A stretch of 64,000 nt of DNA from Eledone cirrhosa (taxonomy: Eukaryota), in the NCBI GenBank assembly GCA_964016885.1, contig OZ024745.1, positions 126,790,001 to 126,854,000 on the forward strand, written 5' to 3'. This document shows, in pieces, positions 1 through 45,799 of this stretch. Numbering within the stretch: the first letter of the stretch is position 1; each line of letters begins with the position of its first letter. Below the pieces are notes generated by a model. That model searched no databases, was not told the origin of the DNA, and saw nothing but the letters and a program-made list of their open reading frames with translations. Position numbers and translations under genes: made by a program.

Positions 1-106
1 TATGTATATATATAAAATATATGTATATATATATATATGTATATATATAAAATATATGTATATATATATATGTATATATATAAAATATATGTATATATAT
101 ATAAAA

Positions 107-154
<48 letters not shown>

Positions 155-288
155 AAATATATGTATATATATATATGTATATATATAAAATATATGTATA
201 TATATATATGTATATATATATAAAATATATGTATATATATATATGTATATATATATGTATATATATAAAATATATGTATATATATATG

Positions 289-324
<36 letters not shown>
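1..324. repeat. Compound (TA)n microsatellite with recurring TATAAAATATATGTATA sub-unit
   Basis: Direct inspection; generates the spurious YI-repeat ORFs 2..223 and 37..429. Confidence 0.95.
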
Positions 325-429
325 GGAACAAGTAAGACCCCTTCGTTATCTAGCTCCTATCCCCGTAGTAGAGCACTTTCCGACCCTACCACGCCTTCCT
401 TCGTTGTATATATATATATATATATGTAA

Positions 430-935
430 TAAATACAATATCGGAGAAAGCTTTTTAGCGATACTCCGGCCAAATTCCAACTCACTCAACAAACATTAGG
501 AAATAAGTCATTAGATTCCCAATTATGTGTTCGGGGTGCTAACTAAAAGTATTGCGTGGAAAATTGGCTGTATTATTTCAAATGAGACATATCTAATACA
601 TCTCTTCCCAGACGGACGTCTCGTTTCATTATAGGATTCCTACAATTTGGGTGAAATTATACCAATTTATGTAGGAACTTGTATACCATCAATAGATATA
701 TATTCAAGTGGGCTCCTATAATTCATCAGTGGGTGCCCCAATAATACTAATATTGATAATCTAACCAACATCAGCATTTAGCGATAATCACTTTCTGTTG
801 TGCCTGAGGTATCTGTCAGGTTGCCAGTCCAGCAGTTCTAAAGAAGTGCTCGAACTGATTCAAAAAATGAGGAAGTGAATTACCGCCAAAAAAACAATAC
901 AAGCGCGTGACAATGAACTCTGAAAGGAATTCAGA
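430..935 (-). mobile_element. ~500 bp non-coding element between (TA)n tracts, probably a solo pLTR of a Penelope-like element
   Basis: Complex, CpG-containing sequence sharply bounded by TA repeats; carries a complete hammerhead motif on the minus strand. PLE assignment is inferred from the known HHR-in-pLTR association. Confidence 0.6.
607..733 (-). ncRNA. Type I hammerhead ribozyme with expanded stem II
   Basis: Minus strand reads CCCA-CUGAUGA-AUUAUAGGA-[77 nt]-UCCUAUAAU-GAAA-CG-AGACGUC-CG-UC-UGGG. It has a canonical core, a 9-bp perfect stem II, a short stem III with palindromic GACGUC loop, a GUC triplet and a 4-bp proximal stem I. Predicted cleavage between 611 and 610. Confidence 0.85.
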
Positions 936-1989
936 TATATATGTATATATATATATATATATAGTTATACTTGGGAGTTTTTTGATCCTCTGTGTTCGGA
1001 CCTGGTGTACATGAGAGATGGTGAGGGCGAGAGAGACAGAGGCGATGACAGTGGGATTTTGGTTCCACTGTGTTCGGATCTGGTGTACATGTGTGTTTAA
1101 TTTTACACTGTCAACCTTTTGCTTTCCATAATTTTCTTGGTACTACACAAGTAATAGTTCTTAATCATATCAACTGAAAGAGCAATCAAATATTCAACAT
1201 CTCTCTCTCTCTCTAATTATTTATATCATAACATATTAGCTGCTCTTCAAATTGACAGTGAAATGTTAAATATATTTAGTATTAGTGAACAATGATTGCT
1301 CTCGTATTACCAACTAGTCTATAAACACAATAGGAATCACTACCAACACAGATAACATCAACAGCAGTAATTGTAGTTAGTTTTTTTATCTGCTTATTGA
1401 TGACGATCTCTTTATCTAAAGTAAACAGTTTACATTCTAATCATATAAAGAAGACTTGTTGAAGGAAGTCTATTATGCAATACAAAATTTACTTTTGTCT
1501 TTCTACCTACTGATTTCAAATCTCGCTGGGGTTGGCTTTGCCGTTAATTCCTTCAGGGTTGATAGAAAGGTGCTGATCATCAGATCAGAACAAAGAAAAC
1601 ATGTTTCATGTCTCTCCATTCCATTGCAATGCCTGGTAAAAAGAGGTATGATTTGAACTCGGAATGCACAGAGGTGGATTAGATACAGCAAAGCATCTTC
1701 TCAAACTCTTTAACATTTCCCTGGAAAGAAGAAAAGCGAAATTGATCTCAATGGGATTTGAACTCAGAAAGCTGGAACAAATACAGAAGCATATAATCTG
1801 ATGCTCTAATGACTCTGCCAATAAAGGTTGATAAAATATATGCTATTAATGCATTTAAATCAATTTACTTTGTTAGATTCTCATCCACCACCCCGCCCAA
1901 TTTAACCTGATGCCTAATAGAATGGTTTCTTTATTCACAATAATGGTTTCTTTATTCTTCATGCCTAATAGAATAATATCAAAATTCCC

Positions 1990-2590
1990 TTGGTGGTATC
2001 AGGATCCTATCTTCTTTCTTACTTATTAAGATTTTAGTCTTTGCTAGATTAACTTTCAGGCTTTTCAATTCTAGGTATTGTTTCCATTCCTGGAATTTCA
2101 CCTCTAACTTTTTGATAGATTCAACTATAAGGACTAGGCCATCAACATATTGGACTGGAGAACAAGGATAAAAAGAAAACAGCTGAGGACTTAGCCTTGT
2201 TAGATTCCTACTGGCATGCTAAATTCGTCAATGTACTCATTGCCAACTCTCAGCTTGCTGGATTTATTTGTGTACATTAATTATACGTCCCTCACAAGCC
2301 ATTTATGTACACCTAATTTTTTAGCACATACCAAATTACAGAGAGGCCTTCTCTATACCGATCAATCTTAGCAGACTATCTCAAAATCTGGAACTCTTCA
2401 TGCCTCTGAACTCATGTACCAACTTTTCTGCTTTTCCTTTAGCTAAGGTGATTGCCTCAAATGGCACAGGTGTGAAGGGATCCAAAACTTCCTCTGACCT
2501 ATCTTACCTGTTAATTCAGGTGAAGCCAAAAGTATTCTTGCTCCTGGTTGCTAAGAAGCTTTGCTATGCCACTGGAGCTACATTATCCTT
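1990..2590 (-). mobile_element. Degenerate RTE-type LINE RT fragment
   Basis: Minus strand gives LRVGNEYIDEFSMPVGI*QG*VLS-like motif (RT GVxQGSVLSP) with stops; similar to the RTE at 52.9-53.3 kb. Confidence 0.6.
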
Positions 2591-3060
2591 TTAACCTTTT
2601 TGACACCTGAAACCAGTTCTGGATCTATGATACTAACTTATTTATTTTAAAGTATTTAACTTTGCACTTAAAAACTTTCCATCATATGTTTATGTAAGAA
2701 CCTTTGTTAAATTGTTTTAACCCTTTAGCATTTAAACTGGCCATACCTGGCCAGAATTCTCTCACCTTTTTCTATTTAAACTGGCTGTAGCTGGCTGCTC
2801 ATACTGATGTTAAGATATTGTTCTCGAAATAAATATCAAAATCTCATGGATTCCATACAAGTGAGATAATTATGTGAAATAAAGTATTTACCATGAAAAT
2901 ACAATAGTAAATATAGAGTAATGTAGATGCTAAAGGGTTAAACACCAATAATAATAGGGTTTGTTATTTTACTTAATCCCTCCTAATTCTTAGATATTTA
3001 CAAAATTATTTGAAAATAGGCAATGTTTTTCATTAGCAATATGGTAACAAAAGCGTAAAA
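2591..3060. mobile_element. Degenerate TTAA/CCTTTT-type MITE (family B), interrupted by a family A MITE
   Basis: Starts TTAACCTTTTTGACACC and ends ATGGTAACAAAAGCG. Related degenerate copies near 18.8-19.35, 32.9-33.15, 37.24-37.47, 41.0-41.46 and 61.1-61.4 kb. Confidence 0.55.
2721..2937 (+). mobile_element. piggyBac-like MITE (family A)
   Basis: TTAA on both sides; TIRs CCCTTTAGCAT...ATGCTAAAGGG; about 12 copies in the window. Confidence 0.85.
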
Positions 3061-4999
3061 AGCTTTCAAGAAAGCATATAATTATTTTTAGTCTTAGTAG
3101 ATTCTTTAAAATAAAAAACAAAAAATCCTATCACTTTGCCAAGCCAAGAAATATAATACCTAAAAATAGATATTAGCCTAAATTTCTAAACTTAAAATTG
3201 ATTGATGTTAGCAATTCATTTCAAAATTTCTAAAAATACTGGATATATTTTAAAACATTATCAATATAAGGAAATTCCACTTAATAAAGGGTGGGGGTGG
3301 GGTGGGGGGTGGGGGGACTCTTCAATTGTGCCAAAAGTACAACTACTTCCTAGTGTTGGTGAGTTACATGAGAAATGTGCTCAGTATATTCTGTAAAGTG
3401 GTTGCTAATAGGAAGAGCATCCAGAAAACTTGCCAAACAAAGATATGGAAGGACTCTTCAGCTAACCTCATTTATTGGTGATTTACATGACAAAAGCACC
3501 CAGTACACTTTGTAAAGGGTTTGGTGTTACGAAGGGCATCCAACTATAGAAAACCTACTAAACAAGGACTCTTCAGCTGTGTCAAAAACAACCTAGTGTT
3601 GGTATCACGATAAAAAGAACTCAATAGTACAGACCTGTCTCAGCACTAATTAGAGTGCAAGAACATAAGCATGATACAGGCTCTAGGCCCACAGTGGGGG
3701 TCAGTACTTCCAGTATGACTACCAATACAGTCTGCTGATGACCTGTCCAACCCTTGCTAGCAGGGAAAGTAGATGTTATACAATGATGATAATAGAATGA
3801 TAATCACTGGAGATTTCTGATTTATAACAAATATGATACCAAGATGCATTTTTGAAAACAATGAGTAACTTCAACAGAAGTACTAGAATGATATCATCTT
3901 CAAAATATTTGAAATCAAATCATTTGAAATGTGTATATAGAAATGAATAATTCTTAATGACTTAAGGTAATTATCACAATTAGCTTAGCTAATTAGGACT
4001 GTTTGAGAACTCTTCCCCCCATGACCCTCTCGAGAATAAGTGTGCAAAGAAGAAGAAACAGCACGCAAAATACATTTTTTCTTTTGCTATTAGCATTCAT
4101 TAGTTGTTAGTCATGTTTTAATTTTTCTATCTAGCCCTAAAACAGAAAAAAAAGCAGAAAATTATTCTAATAGTAGTAATTTTTTAAACTTTAGTTTTAA
4201 AATTATCTAAAACGTGAAAAACAACTTAAAATGTGCAACATTAAACCTTTTCTGTAAATTCTAAGATTCAGTAAAGTAATTAATTCATTAATGCAACATC
4301 ATTATTCACATTATATTATGGTTAGTAGCTTATTGAGAGATGGCTAATTACTATTATTGTTTTCCATTGGCTATTTCAGTTGATATTTGAATTCTTTTTA
4401 TCATCCATTGAATAAGTTGAACAAATCAAATGGTTCGTTAAATTAACAAATGTTTGTTATATTAATGCTAGTTACTATAAAACTATTGATTTTTGCCTTA
4501 TTTACATTATTTCAAGTGAAGAGTTGTTTAATATTTTAATTATTTTATGAGATACTATAGTTAAGTGGGTAAGGTTTCAAACTCTTGCTTTCTAGGCTGG
4601 AGGTTTACATAGCACAAAGCATTACATTAACTCTACTGTCACTGCAGTTAAGACTATTTGCCTTGGGCCTTATATCTATGGAAGAGATTATCAAATTGTG
4701 CAATGAGTGGGTGGAAAATAATACTGAATTTCTAGTCCATTGTTTATGAATCTAATCCAAATGTAGGAATTCTGTTAAATCAATATAAAATTTGATAAGA
4801 AAATAATGATTTCTAATTTTGGAACAAAGCCAACAATTTCAGGTAACGGAAAGTCAATTGAATTGACCCCAGTACTTGACTGATACTTTATTTTATCGAC
4901 CTTGGATTTCAGAACACAAATAGCTGGAAAAATATTGCTACACATTTGTTCAATTAATCTACTGATCCACCACCCTCCATTTGAAAAAGACTATTATAT

Positions 5000-6650
5000 A
5001 AAACATTACCCACACAATACAGCACATCCACTAAATCCTCCGGTGTTGCAAACTAGCTGTGCCAGTTTTACACAAATTAACCCAGGTACTAAATGTGCTT
5101 CACCTTCCCACAACCCACTTTCCAAGCTATGTCCATCCATATCACCTCATATAATCAAAGGCCACAACCCCAAAACCACCTAAATGGTTCCTTCAAAGCT
5201 ATTGTGCTGCAGTGCAGGTAAAGAATGCTGCCTACAATTCTGAGAAAATCATATACCACCACAACTCATGGAAGAATGTCAAATGATGCTTTCATACACT
5301 ATACAGACAGCAAATTCTTCCACCTCCCAAATTGTTTTATAGCTTTCTGGCCCCTTGCCAAAAGATTCCTTCCAAATTTGTAGCATCCTTCTTGCCAAGA
5401 TGGCTCTATAAGAAATGTTTCTGCTGAAAATGCCACATTTGCTGCTTAGTTTGCTTTCAATTTCACACTACCCTCTTGTATTGAAAGTTTCCTATGAGAC
5501 CATTTCATTGCAGAGCATGCAGGCGGAGCTCATATTGACCCACACACACTCTTTTAATTATGATGTACTCCAAGGTTAGGCTGGCTTTCCTACTTCTTTC
5601 TTATACATTAACAATCTATTTACTGCCAATTTAAACAACATACACTCTTATTAAATTGATACAATTTGCACTTAGGCATCATCTTAGCCTCGTATTTCTA
5701 ATATTGTTCAAAAGAAATGGATGAGATTTTCAGGCCATTGCCATTGCACCACAAATGTAGCTGTCTCCTTTAGTGCTTTGGTAACCAACATCTGACAAAA
5801 GTCAAAGAGGTCACAAGCTGCCCTATCCAGATGTCATAGCTAGAAACTCTGGTATTGATATCCAGGGTCTAGGCAATGCAATGAGCTACAGACATACATC
5901 TATCACTGAGTTTATTTCAGCTGAGGTTGCAGGATGATGAGAAACATCTATCCAGACAGCACAGGCTCTATGAAAATAAACCATCCTCCAATGGAGACTT
6001 GATATCAGAGTCTCCTTCAACATCACAAAGACATTTTGAAGGTAATTTCATCATGTTACAATATTCTAGGAAAATAGTTTTGTACTACTTCTGCTCTACA
6101 CACAAACAACATGTAATTAAAAATTGTAAATGTTATATTTTCTCACATATATAACATTTTCATAATCTCTTGTAAAGACTAGGCTTCCTCTTTAGAACCA
6201 GAAAATACTTATACTTTTATCTGTTGCTGATCTTGAATAAAAGCTTAAGTACAACACATCATGAACTGTTGTCAAACAAACCCCCACGCAAACATACACT
6301 TCATGTTTAAGGTCTTTCAGACTATTGACAATGACGCAATCTCAAAAATATGACACCCACGTGCAGTGTTTTTTTCTGTCTCTCTCATTGCTTCCAAAAT
6401 AGCTTTTGTTTCTCCAAACTAGTCAGTTTTATAACTTTTCCACTCAATCTCACTCAACATACTTGCCTTCCTTCCTCTCAAAATCCTGTGGTGTAACATT
6501 AAACATTGTTGTTAATCAATCCTCTCTAGAACTGTAACTCTTCGGAAATTCCTCTCCACTAAAGTATTCCCTGTTGATACCTACTTACTGATGTGTAAAC
6601 TGAACATCAACCAAATTGATTGCACTTCTCTATGAATACATTCAAAGGTC
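5000..6650 (+). mobile_element. Highly degenerate LINE (CR1/L2/Jockey-like) remnant
   Basis: Remnant RT motif near 5560-5620 (VLQG...LLxYINNL-like); no open ORF; boundaries approximate. Confidence 0.4.
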
Positions 6651-10275: not shown

Positions 10276-10309
10276 TTTATATATATATATATATATATTT
10301 ATTAAAATA

Positions 10310-10385
10310 ACAGATTAAAGTTTAAGCAAAGAATCGCTGCTTTCACCCTTAACGGGATCTTCTGAAACTACCAAAGTCAATCTGT
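10310..10385 (-). ncRNA. Variant hammerhead-like motif (inverted pLTR copy)
   Basis: Reverse complement of 12734-12809. Confidence 0.55.
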
Positions 10386-10629
10386 AAACGCAGAAGGGGA
10401 TATTTCAAAAAACGTTGCAACCGGAGGAAAACAGGAAGACGATACTTTGGTTCGTGGAAACGTTCGCTGGCAAAGAACGGGAAAAACGAATATAATACGT
10501 CATTAATAGGAGCGGTGAAAAACAATTACGCGCAAAGACAGAACCACGTTTATGGTATAAAAGAGGTCGTAGACTAATGTTCTCTTAGGTGGTGCATAGA
10601 GACGTTCTCTGGCGATGAACGAAAAAAAC

Positions 10630-11812
10630 AGTGATTCTGCGGAGGTTACTGTTCTTATCGGCCTTTTCCTTCTTTTCTCTATCAAGGACGAATTGCCCAA
10701 CGCGGGCGGTGGTTTGTACCGTGACGATGGTCTTTTGACCATGACTAAGTGCGGACCTCGTGCTTGCGACAGGTTCAGAAAAGAACTCACAGCCTTCTTT
10801 AAAGGCTTCAACCTCTCTATACAGGTTGAGGCCAATCTCTCGGTCGTTAATTACCTCGACGTTACCCTCAATTTATTGAATGGGTTGTATTACTCGTATA
10901 GAAAGCTGAAGGGTACGCTTAATTACATAAGTAAGTATTCCAACCATCCTGCCAGCATAACCAAGAACCTGGTAAGAAACGTTTCGTTGAGGCTTTCCCG
11001 TCTTTCCACCAACGAGCGTATTTTCAACGACCATTCCACTTATTACAATGAAGCTCTTATTCGAAGTGGATTTGTCGATAAGGTAGCATATACAGAGTAC
11101 GAAAATAGACCTAGAAGAAATAGATCCCGTCGCATTTGTTGGTATAACCCACCATATAATATGGAGGTGGCCACACCATTAGCTAAGATCTTTCTTTCCC
11201 TTATTACGAAGCATTTTCTCCCTACACATAAATATAGTAAAATTTAATAGAAATACTATTAAAATTTCTTACTCTACTACTCCTAACCTTGCACATAACA
11301 TCACAGCTTCAAATTTAGCTAAACTACCTTGCCGTAGGAACACGTGCAACCCTGTAGTTAGTACTAACTGTAATTGTAGGAATCGGGTTGATTGCCCCCT
11401 ATCCGGGAAATCCCTCTCTAGTAACATTGTCTACAAATGTAAGGTTGTAACACCCACGTCCTGTAGGGCCTACATAGGGTTAACCGCCAATAGATTCAAG
11501 CAGCGTCTTTACATGCATACCCATTCTTTTCGTTACCCTCTAAGAAGGAATATGACGTCACTTTCAGCTTATATATGGAGTCTAAAAGACAACCACACCC
11601 AATATAAGTTACATACACTGGGAGATCCTAGCTAGGGCTAGATCGTATAACGGAAACAAAAGACAATGTGACCTCTGCGCCGCTGAGGCCCTGGAAATAC
11701 TCTACGCCACAGACCACATCTTAAACAAAAAATGTGAGGCAATTTCGGCTTGTAAACATAAATTGCACAAAACTTTCCTGTATTACAGCCCCACGTTATA
11801 CCCTAACGGATT
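10630..11812 (+). pseudogene. PLE RT-thumb-GIY-YIG ORF, truncated and frameshifted
   Basis: ORF 10615..11247 (SAEV..IGLFLL, YRDD, VNYLDVTLNL, SNHP, WYNPPY). Frameshift at ~11245 into NRNTIKISYS...NCNCRNRVDCPL...IVYKC...YIGLT. A 4-bp insertion at ~11612 relative to the 44.4 kb copy. Confidence 0.9.
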
Positions 11813-12733
11813 GTACGATTTATACGTGGATATTTTACGTCTTGATATGGGAGCTAAGTATATGTTTTGTTTATACCATTACTTATTTGCATAGGTAAGT
11901 ATATATTACCCGTATGTTTTGTGAAGGTACGTATACCTTCTTGTACGTATATTTGATTGTTTATGTTATGGCGTATAATTTTATATATTCTGGTACATAT
12001 GGTTTGGCTATGTGTATACGGGAGTTTTGCGTCTGTGTGAGTATGCAGGTTCGTACGTATATGGGAGTGTGTATATGTGGACTTCATGTTTTGGTTGACT
12101 TACGTCTCCGAACATTCGTGTATTTACATGTAGGTATGTGTGTGCGCTTGTTATATACGTATTTATTTATTTATATACGTTTATATATTTATTTATTTAT
12201 TTTTATACACGCATACACACGCACACATATTTATATGTGCGTGGTTTTGTATACCTATGGTAAGTGTTTTGCGTATGCTTGTGTATGTACGTATTTGTTT
12301 GCGTGTATGTATTTATTTATTTCTATTACTTCTGTATTGTATTTATTTACTTTGTTCTTAACTCTGTAGCGGAGATTCATTCGGTCTCCTAGTTAGAATT
12401 TTAGTTTACGACTTCTGCTATACCATTTCCTTGGTTTTGTCTTTGCGTGCTATTGTTCTCCATGCTCCACATATGACGTATTATCTTCGTTTTTTTCGTT
12501 CATCGCCAGAGAACGTCTCTATGAACCACCTAAGAGAACATTAGTCTACGACCTCTTTTATACCATAAACGTGGTTCTGTCTTTGCGCGTAATTGTTTTT
12601 CACCGCTCCTATTAATGACGTATTATATTCTTTTTTTCCCGTTCTTTGCCAGCGAACGTTTCCACGAACCAAAGTATCGTCTTCCTGTCTTCCTCCGGTT
12701 GCAACGTTTTTTTAAATATCCACTTCTGCGTTT

Positions 12734-12809
12734 ACAGATTGACTTTGGTAGTTTCAGAAGATCCCGTTAAGGGTGAAAGCAGCGATTCTTTGCTTAAACT
12801 TTAATCTGT
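12734..12809 (+). ncRNA. Variant type I hammerhead-like motif in PLE pLTR
   Basis: ACAGAUUGA-cuuuggu-AGUUU-CAGAAGA-UCCC guuaa GGGU-GAAA-GCAG...UUGC-UU-AAACU-UUAAUCUGU. Stem I is 5+9 bp with a bulge; stems II and III form. The core deviates: U4A, U10.1.U11.1, CUU triplet. Confidence 0.6.
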
Positions 12810-12907
12810 TATTTTAATAAATATTTGCTCTACGGTTCATGTATATTTGATATATATTTATCCTTATCGAGCCCTCTTTGGATTTTAGTCTTCAAATTTA
12901 TTATTAT

Positions 12908-43789: not shown

Positions 43790-44355
43790 TAAAATCAGGT
43801 TCAATAAAACGTGGTTTAGATGACTCCTAAATAGTAGAGGATCTGGTGGACCATCCACCATAGGGACCACAAGCTATGGGTGGTTGTTGTTGTCCAATGG
43901 TCATTGGTACGGGGTGTAGGGGACCTACAGAGGGGGCGTTGTGGGAGGCCGTAACCGGGGTTTATCTATATAGCTAGAGGAAAGTTCCCGTCCTTAGGTG
44001 TCTGCAGGCACCGAATAAGTCGGCCCTTCTGTTTAATAGCTTGGTTCCGCCATGAAGAATCTCGAGTGTCTCACTAAGACAGAGGTTGCAAATACCAGAC
44101 CCGCCTCTGTCTGGGAGAACCTTTCTAACCATGGACCAGACCAGAGAGTGCGGGGTCTTTTCAAGTTTGAGCTTCCATATCGATTCAGAAAGGGCCGTAC
44201 ATTTCCTCTTGTCTATTCTGTTAAAGGAATGGCGATGGTTATACCACCGATCTTTGAAGCTCGTCGCTGTGGATCCTATGTAGTGGTGCTCCGAGTTAGG
44301 GGTTGTGACCTTGCACCTGTAGACTACGTTTTTCGTCATGCATTCATTACTAAGG
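43790..44355 (-). mobile_element. PLE family B 3' fragment: GIY-YIG endonuclease plus 3' UTR
   Basis: ORF 43974..44369: NVVYRCKV...HYIGSTATSFKDRWYNHRHSF...LSESIWKLK...CNLCLSETLEIL...LLNRR...CRH. Confidence 0.9.
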
Positions 44356-45728
44356 GCCAATATATTCAAGCAGCGTCTTTACATGCATACCCATTCTTTT
44401 CGATACCCTCTAAGAAGGAATATGACGTCACTTTCAGCTTATATCTGGAGTCTAAAAGACAACCACACCCAATATAAGTTACACTGGGAGATCCTAGCTA
44501 GGGCTAGATCGTATAACGGAAATAAAAGACCATGTGACCTCTGCGCTGCTGAGGCCCTGGAAATACTCTACGCCACAGACCACATCTTAAACAAAAAATC
44601 TGAGGTAATTTCGGCTTGTAAACATAAATTGGACAAACCTTTCCTGTATTACAGCCCCACATTATACCCTAACGGATAGTACGATCTATACGCGTATATT
44701 TTACGTCTTGATGTGGTAGCTAAGTATATGTTATGTTTATACCATTACTTATTTGTATAGGTAAGTATATATTACCTGTATGTTTTGTGAAGGTACGTAT
44801 TCTTTCTCGTACGTATATTTGATTGTATATGTTTTGGCGTATATTTTATATATTCTGGTACATATGCTTTTGGTTATGTGTATACGTGAGTTTTGCGTCT
44901 GTGTGAGTATGCGGGTTCGTACGTATGTAGGGTGTGTGTATATGTGTACTTCGTGTTTTGGTTGACGTACGTCTCCGAACATATGTGTATTTACATGTAA
45001 TTATGTGTGTGCGCTTGTTATATACGTATTTATTTATTTATATGTTTATTTAATTATTTGTATACACGCGCACACACATATATATGTATGCGTGTATTTG
45101 TATACCTATGGTGAGTGTTTTCGCGTATGCTTGTGTATGTACTTATATGGATGCGTGTATGTATTTATTTAATTTCAATTACCTCTCTATTTTATTTACT
45201 TTATTCTTAACTCTGAAGCCGAGAATCATTCGGTTTCCTAGTTAGAATTTTAGTCTACGACTTCAGTTATACCATTTACGCGGTTTTGTCTTTGCGTGCA
45301 ATTGTTCTCCCCGCTCCACACATGACGTATTATCTTCATTTTTTCCGTTCATTGCCAGAGAACGTCTCTATGAACCACCTCATAGAATATTAGTCTACGA
45401 CTTCTTTTATACCATAAACGTGGTTTTGTCTTTGCGTGTAATTGTTTTTCACCGCTCCAAATAATTGTTTCTACTTTTGGCACAAGGCCAGCAATTACCC
45501 AGTGTATCACTGGTACTTTATTTTATCGACCCCGTATTCGTTTTTTCCCGTTCTTCGGCACCGAACGTTTCCACGAACCAAAGTATCGTCTTCCTGTCTT
45601 CCTCCGGTTGCAACGTTTTTTGAAATATCCACTTCTGCGTTTACAGATTGACTTTGTTAGTTTCAGAAGATCCCGTTAAGGGTGAAAGCTGCGATTCTTT
45701 GCTTAAACTTTAATCTGTTATTTTAATA
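44356..45728 (+). mobile_element. PLE family A 3' fragment (second copy): endonuclease C-terminus plus pLTR
   Basis: Highly similar to 11486-12818; ORF 44338..44679 FKQRLYMHTHSF...CDLCAAEALEIL...ACKH. Confidence 0.92.
45643..45718 (+). ncRNA. Variant hammerhead-like motif (third copy)
   Basis: Same as 12734-12809 with one substitution in stem III and one in the stem I bulge. Confidence 0.55.
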
Positions 45729-45799
45729 TATATATATATATATGTGTGTGTGTATATATACACACACATATATATATGTATATATATATATATATGTGC

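Follow-up and report, generated by a model that had tools for sequence, protein, structure and literature searches.

The minus strand of the analyzed DNA carries, at positions 733-607, a type I hammerhead that likely cleaves itself and whose stem II bears a conserved branched domain. Its carrier, a 707-bp repeat without coding capacity, likely spreads in the manner of a non-autonomous Penelope-type retrozyme; from the comparison of genomic copies, we give this reading a probability of roughly 0.7. The window, that is, the whole stretch of DNA that was analyzed, comprises 64,000 nucleotides of Eledone cirrhosa (GCA_964016885.1, contig OZ024745.1, positions 126,790,001 to 126,854,000 of the forward strand). 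The comparative evidence for a putative hammerhead with a branched domain is strong, and the architecture of the repeat's hammerhead is best read as new.

The hammerhead motif in the window

A complete type I hammerhead had been predicted from the letters of the window, and the minus strand at 733-607 contains the full core together with a 9-bp stem II and a 77-nt loop II. The core consists of C3 U4 G5 A6 N7 G8 A9, G12 A13 A14, the A15.1-U16.1 pair, and H17, and is surrounded by three helices with stem I open, which is the type I layout. Such a motif was found once only in the window; none of 200 block-shuffled windows contained one with a 9-bp stem II, and two matches overall had a stem II of at least 4 bp. 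The components of the motif, its neighbors, and the repeat copy that carries it are as follows.

730-733, minus strand: 5′ strand of stem I; CCCA here, UCCA facing UGGA in other subfamilies (C-G in 25 and U-A in 20 of 49 copies)
723-729, minus strand: catalytic core CUGAUGA (C3-U4-G5-A6-N7-G8-A9), in which N7 is U or A, subfamily by subfamily
714-722, minus strand: 5′ strand of stem II, which forms 9 bp with 636-628; pairing in 93.4% of cells, two-sided changes at 5 of the 9 pairs
710-713, minus strand: GCCC, single-stranded in a three-way junction; predicted pseudoknot partner of 738-735
678-708, minus strand: side hairpin P2a of loop II, 10 + 3 bp; the most covarying helix, with 5 of 13 pairs changed on both sides
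638-676, minus strand: inner arm of loop II, in which P2b is capped by an internal loop and P2c
676-670 / 644-638, minus strand: P2b, 7 bp, 98.3% paired; one pair is U-A (36) or C-G (8)
663-661 / 652-650, minus strand: P2c, 3 bp; U-A (26) or A-U (20)
628-636, minus strand: stem II 3′ strand, pairing with 722-714
611-627, minus strand: G12-A13-A14 (627-625), 3-bp stem III with palindromic loop, U16.1, and C17; predicted cut 611/610
607-610, minus strand: stem I 3′ strand UGGG, which would be the 5′ end of the cleaved RNA
735-738, minus strand: GGGC, predicted pseudoknot 5′ strand, conserved
743-778, minus strand: hairpin of 15 bp that precedes stem I and is predicted by RNAalifold; its pairing is kept by 16 inherited changes and broken by 5
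584-604, minus strand: hairpin downstream of stem I of at least 7 bp, moderately conserved (84.3% paired); RNAalifold does not predict it
430-934, minus strand: 5′-truncated repeat copy (unit positions approximately 205-708) between (TA)n runs, with its fixed 3′ end at 430

The proposed 3-bp stem III with a palindromic GACGUC was seen as ACG/CGU (624-622 / 614-612) with the loop AGACGUC. Cleavage had been placed at 610; C17 is nucleotide 611, which sets the predicted cut between 611 and 610. When folded by RNAfold, as had been advised, the RNA formed stem II and both inner helices of loop II (z -3.36). The pairing of the helix proposed between UUCCUACA and UGUAGGAA is kept in the family, at a length of 7 bp and not 8 bp, because the U at 677 is private to the window copy (C in 33/33 other aligned rows). 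The G at 599, in GAGAUGUA, is also private to the window copy, with A in 33/33 other aligned rows. At the base of stem II, the window copy has A-U in place of the usual G10.1-C11.1, and other subfamilies have G-C, G-U, or U.U.

Standard descriptors miss the motif, as the original prediction had anticipated: an Rfam scan of window positions 1-6000 up to an E-value of 5 returned 21 weak matches, none of them a hammerhead, and the 18 matches of a genome search with Hammerhead_1 (RF00163; 74 scored of 415,510 candidates) included none on the repeat.

The carrier repeat and its insertion pattern

A search of the 3.0-Gb genome with the element, which had been suggested as a check, identified at least 39 other matches at 96-98% (scored among 2,378 candidates). 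Tandem copies define a unit of 707 bp; in other subfamilies, the unit is 682-767 bp with a GC content of 31-36% (five units), and the tandem spacing is 699-767. Two different stem III patterns gave 986 and 660 genome matches (6 and 1 in the controls), the latter including a few matches of other families, and the repeat copies therefore number at least approximately 1,600; the loop II pattern gave 508 matches. Copies occur singly or in head-to-tail arrays of two to four units; as in non-LTR retrozymes, the tandem units are non-coding and each has its own type I hammerhead. The longest ATG ORF was 33-70 aa in five units, comparison of the unit with six PLE protein pieces yielded no significant match and no protein remnant, and a search of the unit for tRNA found none. 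The unit itself thus lacks the ORF with RT, C-terminal GIY-YIG, RWK, DKT, and CxCx5C of an autonomous Hydra-clade PLE.

A TA run follows 119 of 155 terminal motifs, and another 34 lead into the next unit (153/155 together). Thirty loci were selected with a motif that lies 3′ of the cleavage site: the 3′ end is at unit positions 700-708 in 28 of them, and the 5′ ends are scattered from 1 to 527; an inverted pair of copies is present at locus L171. Insertion into (TA)n, a constant 3′ end, truncated 5′ ends, partial tandems, and inverted copies make up the Penelope-like insertion pattern described by Craig et al. 2021, where (TA)n is the Hydra-clade target (PMC8557442). These properties, together with the tandem-prone and non-coding character of the unit, support the earlier proposal of a non-autonomous PLE- or retrozyme-like element. 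That the unit is instead the long 3′ end (pseudo-LTR) of an unsampled autonomous Penelope-like family is very improbable: the sample comprises only about 300 loci and retrozymes are reported to derive from PLE pseudo-LTRs (Li et al. 2026 preprint, 10.64898/2026.07.22.740005), but the head-to-tail arrays of two to four units have no ORF between units, and no full-length copy examined sits behind an ORF in unit register.

Counted by eye, the cleavage site lies within 97 of the 100 listed copies, and the other 3 start no more than 1 nt away from it; the latter 5′ ends are only a hint of possible self-cleavage. Since copies span the site, the RNA that was copied was intact there, as either a religated circle or an uncleaved multimer. 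Copying from uncleaved multimeric transcripts, with the hammerhead as an occasional trimmer or slow passenger, is an unlikely though not negligible alternative that accords with the spanning copies, with the position of the fixed 3′ end about 180 nt past the predicted cleavage site, with an unfavorable monomer fold (see below), and with the successful proliferation of hammerhead-less PLEs (Craig 2021, PMC8557442); against it, the persistence of core and palindrome in the different subfamilies implies selection for cleavage, and known retrozymes accumulate as circles (PMC7229834).

Core and stem III across subfamilies

Loss of the core among genomic copies had been named as part of what would refute the original prediction; subfamilies down to approximately 73% identity (73-87% alike) keep the core. 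H17 is C in 67, U in 15, A in 12, and G in none of 94 rows, some of which were forced to C by the search pattern used to pick the loci. Because most loci were picked with core patterns, so that core conservation in those is partly by construction, 30 further loci were drawn with a core-blind loop II pattern. In these, CUGANGA is intact in 25 of the 28 loci that reach the core, each miss being a different single copy, and GAA is present in 30/30, A15.1 in 29/30, and C or A at H17 in 30/30 (partly read by eye).

The stem III palindrome switches between subfamilies among GAUC, GGCC, and GACGUC, and the switch from AU to GC preserves the palindrome through a double change. Four versions of the stem III segment (ACGAUCGU, ACGGCCGU, ACGAGUCGU, and ACGAGACGUCCGU) are all self-complementary, with energies of -9.6 to -14.7 kcal/mol; each palindrome version alone was equalled by 79-191 of 2000 shuffles (4-10%). 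Stem III is 98% paired among aligned copies, and its predicted probability in the monomer is at most 0.02 in six copies. A self-complementary stem III that is weak in the monomer fits the dimer mode described for metazoan type I hammerheads (PMC4209133, PMC3088659, PMC7229834), those of PLEs and retrozymes being reported to act as dimers (PMC4209133, PMC7229834). Comparison of the copies shows selection on the core, the palindrome, and the stem II domain.

Conservation of the branched stem II domain

The check for covariation that had been called for was run on 49 of 100 extracted copies, selected to spread over clusters, and stem II with its branched loop II proved to be kept by inherited changes that preserve structure. 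From this alignment, RNAalifold predicts stem II, P2a, and P2b unaided. In the 73-pair structure, 88.3% of cells are paired, as compared with 35-45% when the partners are slid, and 173 cells are changed on both sides versus 71 in shuffles (0/500); two of the five measures, the number of pairs with a two-sided change and that of further pair types, do not beat shuffles (152/500 and 495/500, respectively). The swaps are C-G/U-A in stem I, A-U/G-C at the base and seventh pair and A-U/U-A at the end of stem II, and, within loop II, five pairs in P2a and one each in P2b and P2c.

Changes were also placed on a tree of 94 of the 100 rows (one row from another family, one duplicate locus, and four truncated or rearranged rows were left out), in which a change common to at least three copies was taken as inherited and a change in one copy as private. 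For stem II, P2a, P2b, and P2c combined, inherited changes keep pairing in 22 and break it in 9 cases, versus 21 and 52 for private changes (p = 8.6e-5). Only three two-sided changes in the stem II domain fall on single internal branches, and the remainder pass through G-U. As pairing is kept by inherited changes, the layout consists of stem II, a three-way junction with single-stranded GCCCAC, P2a, and P2b-P2c. The insert retains 95-97 nt and the same three-way layout in subfamilies 73% alike, and the sequence of P2b hardly varies. The bias between kept and broken pairs is shared by the unit's other hairpins.

Other pairings were considered. A helix between the stem II 5′ strand and the P2a/P2b junction has six inherited changes that keep it and one that breaks it, though one of its pairs is broken in 43/49 copies. 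On that ground, and for want of compensation in the helix, a cruciform alternative of stem II was rejected. Pairing of the P2c loop with the downstream AAAUAAU tract is likewise not supported: it is 67% paired, with one C-G/U-A pair and inherited changes that mostly fail to preserve pairing.

Predicted pseudoknot and competing folds

The GGGC/GCCC pseudoknot, predicted between the junction and the segment beside stem I, is 91.8% paired without compensatory change. Its eight columns contain 0 inherited and 34 private changes, compared with 71 and 314 in 133 flanking columns. Another proposed feature near stem I, the distal helix GUAUUAUU/AAUAAUAC, is not supported: part of its strand is taken up by the hairpin of 15 bp at 778-743, 38/49 copies lack its G-C pair, and it performs no better than shuffles.

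In a model without pseudoknots, the minimum free energy (MFE) fold of the window copy is 5.2 kcal/mol more stable than its hammerhead-competent fold, and stem I has a probability of 0.02; for the natural dimer, the same kind of model gives -343.0 for the double-hammerhead fold, -349.1 for two monomer folds, and -364.2 for the MFE. Competing predicted folds hide stem I or stem II, and GGGC/GCCC pairing would explain how stem I escapes from the UGGG/CCCA hairpin preferred in the MFE. PLE hammerheads are reported to cleave poorly in vitro (PMC4209133).

The competing folds also bear on the idea that the domain is a putative binding or switching module, which would recruit the helper RT/EN or a host factor, or act as a natural aptazyme by refolding so that the ribozyme stays inactive as long as the RNA is unbound. 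The near-invariance of P2b, which exceeds what pairing alone needs, and the enlargement of stem II in autonomous Hydra elements (see below) point in the same direction; we nevertheless regard this idea as distinctly unlikely, as the insert has no detectable similarity to the rod of the Hydra-1 elements and the alternative helix is without compensation.

Enlarged stem II regions elsewhere in the genome

A relaxed pattern (core, 10-130 nt, GAAACGATCGT) gave 13,304 genome matches versus 38 in the control. Most of the 100 matches listed belong to one family, Hydra-1, with a stem II rod of about 99-126 nt; RNAalifold folded this rod and stem I from 13 copies. Its representative features are as follows.

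L169:996-1130, plus strand: Hydra-1 hammerhead with a stem II rod of about 100-116 nt, about 300 nt upstream of the 830-aa ORF and about 65 nt inside the pseudo-LTR end
L169:1433-3922: Hydra-1 830-aa ORF of an autonomous Hydra-clade PLE with a 6.2-6.7-kb unit

Three ORFs (830, 784, and 713 aa) carry the Hydra motifs RWR, DKT, YRDD, CxCx5C, GIY-YIG-like, CxxC, and CxH, with DKT absent in one of two Hydra-3 copies. Pfam and PDB searches with these ORFs gave no match, and their assignment to Hydra therefore rests on Craig's motif list. The repeat unit has no DNA match to the Hydra-1 and Hydra-2 loci. Across the three sampled Hydra families, there is no clear DNA homology to the repeat except at the 3′ end of one subfamily, whose terminal 33 nt match Hydra-3 at 26 positions (0/5000 shuffles; post hoc); for the window copy's subfamily, 367/5000 shuffles were as good, which is no match.

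In a second Hydra family (L206, 3.5-kb tandem unit), the hammerhead core shows the rare exchange to U3-A8 and the stem II region measures 54 nt; a fragment of this family's 5′ region lies at window positions 325-395, in the TA run beside the hammerhead repeat copy. A third family is present at window positions 10292-12860, truncated and with an inverted end, and at 45607-45736; A replaces U4 of its compact hammerhead-like motif in all copies seen, which may represent an inactive or variant core. A fragment of another Hydra-like GIY-YIG domain is located at 43977-44378 on the minus strand. Further hammerhead-like motifs, unrelated to these and with about 47-100 nt in the stem II region, were observed at L213:1442-1674 and L173:3086-3201 (both minus strand) and in L011, L015, L039, and L057.

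Over all fetched loci, the stem II regions of hammerhead-like motifs range from 12 to 116 nt. Enlarged stem II domains thus recur in several retroelement families, and the motif of the window is one case of a genome-wide trend. It is possible, if somewhat doubtful, that the hammerhead is real and its branched domain only tolerated, in which case stem II could be closed, or the RNA compacted, by any stable fold, with no specific contact or partner. The unrelated sequences of the inserts across this size range, the plain rod of Hydra-1, and the bias shared by the unit's other hairpins would be expected if so, but tolerance alone sits poorly with the constancy of the 95-97-nt insert and its three-way layout across subfamilies 73% alike, and with the 0 inherited changes in the junction GCCC and the flanking GGGC.

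Comparison with known hammerheads and proposed mechanism

The repeat resembles the non-LTR retrozymes described in animals: its tandem units are non-coding and low in GC, and each has a single type I hammerhead with a weak palindromic stem III; autonomous PLEs co-occur in both cases (PMC7229834; Li, Clavereau & Pollet 2026 preprint, 10.64898/2026.07.22.740005). Their monomers are described as approximately 170-400 nt, a reported range and not a strict definition, whereas the unit here is 682-767 nt, and their stem II has 4 bp and a short loop, as compared with 9 bp and a 77-nt branched loop here (PMC7229834). Unlike them, the repeat is mostly dispersed, 5′-truncated, and located in (TA)n.

Like the Hydra-clade PLE hammerheads described by Craig et al. 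(PMC8557442), that of the repeat lies near the 3′ end of its element and has a short stem I, a stem II that opens with U.U or G-C, and GUA, GUU, or GUC as its site. The (TA)n target is also common to both, as are partial tandems and truncated copies in inverted orientation. In contrast to those elements, the repeat has no ORF, and their loop 2 is 3-9 nt in the Hydra rows examined in File S2 of that work, as opposed to 77 nt (PMC8557442). The largest loops in File S2, 29 and 35 nt (PMC8557442), are those of the Selaginella PLE-X1 elements, which are marked there as deviating from canonical: PLE-X1_sMoe shares the 9-bp stem II and has a 35-nt loop 2, and PLE-X1_sTam has a 29-nt loop 2 on a 4-bp stem. 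These loops are less than half the size of the one here, and File S2 gives no branched fold or covariation for them (PMC8557442).

In about 40% of the hammerheads reported by Perreault et al. 2011 (PMC3088659), a pseudoknot of at least 4 bp between the regions of stem I and stem II replaces the loop-loop contact, and stem lengths constrain such pseudoknots (PMC3088659); here, by contrast, the predicted partner strand belongs to a three-way junction that tops a stem of 9 bp. The discontinuous Clec2 hammerhead is likewise a natural hammerhead with core halves far apart, but is of type III, with an insertion of 150-1500 nt in helix I of an mRNA (PMC6155905), whereas here helix II carries the insertion, which is folded and belongs to a mobile element. 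Helix II is reported to be 4-5 bp in most type I motifs (De la Pena 2026, PMC13725137). Within the literature searched, whose coverage was limited, we found no report of a natural hammerhead with a branched loop II.

In the retrozyme mechanism that we favor, tandem copies would be transcribed as multimers, in which two hammerheads would pair via the palindromic stem III and then cut at GUH (611/610). A host ligase may close the 707-nt monomer into a circle; RtcB circularizes retrozyme monomers in vitro (PMC7229834), for which reason we favor circles as the probable template. A Hydra-clade RT/GIY-YIG protein would prime at (TA)n from the fixed site beyond the cut, and copying through the cut site would place full units behind a 5′-truncated one. 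The add-on domain, with P2a and P2b as a putative folded scaffold, would present the junction GCCC to the GGGC beside stem I in place of the usual loop 1-loop 2 contact, and this pairing would block the competing hairpin that hides stem I.

Retroelement hammerheads have been described as small or minimal, and a 77-nt branched domain and an approximately 100-nt rod in thousands of copies mean that short-loop censuses undercount them. The core search of Craig 2021 used a core spacer of 7-17 nt, and some PLEs are listed there with only a 'half core' 35-50 nt apart (PMC8557442). A broader conjecture, doubtful at this stage and on the whole unlikely, is that stem II serves as a natural expansion slot whose folded module couples cleavage to a helper protein or a pseudoknot switch (a natural aptazyme), and that many PLEs scored as hammerhead-less may hold split-core ribozymes unseen by short-loop descriptors. 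The family offers ready-made natural variants for mutational tests and a direct test of what role PLE hammerheads play and whether 'half core' PLEs contain a working ribozyme.

Additional observations on the unit

A 101-bp piece downstream of the hammerhead (L013:1548-1648) is the sole part shared with a deep contig in two public runs, where its flanks differ; the other flank of that contig is absent from the fetched loci, and the arrangement suggests that the piece was captured by another repeat. The public sequencing runs listed as containing the repeat include no RNA run, a result that bears on expression in neither direction. Contigs from four runs with different organism labels match parts of the unit, the U7A subfamily among them. 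Outside the window copy, a near-perfect hairpin of approximately 22 bp lies in the 5′ part of the unit, at L013 unit positions 123-175.
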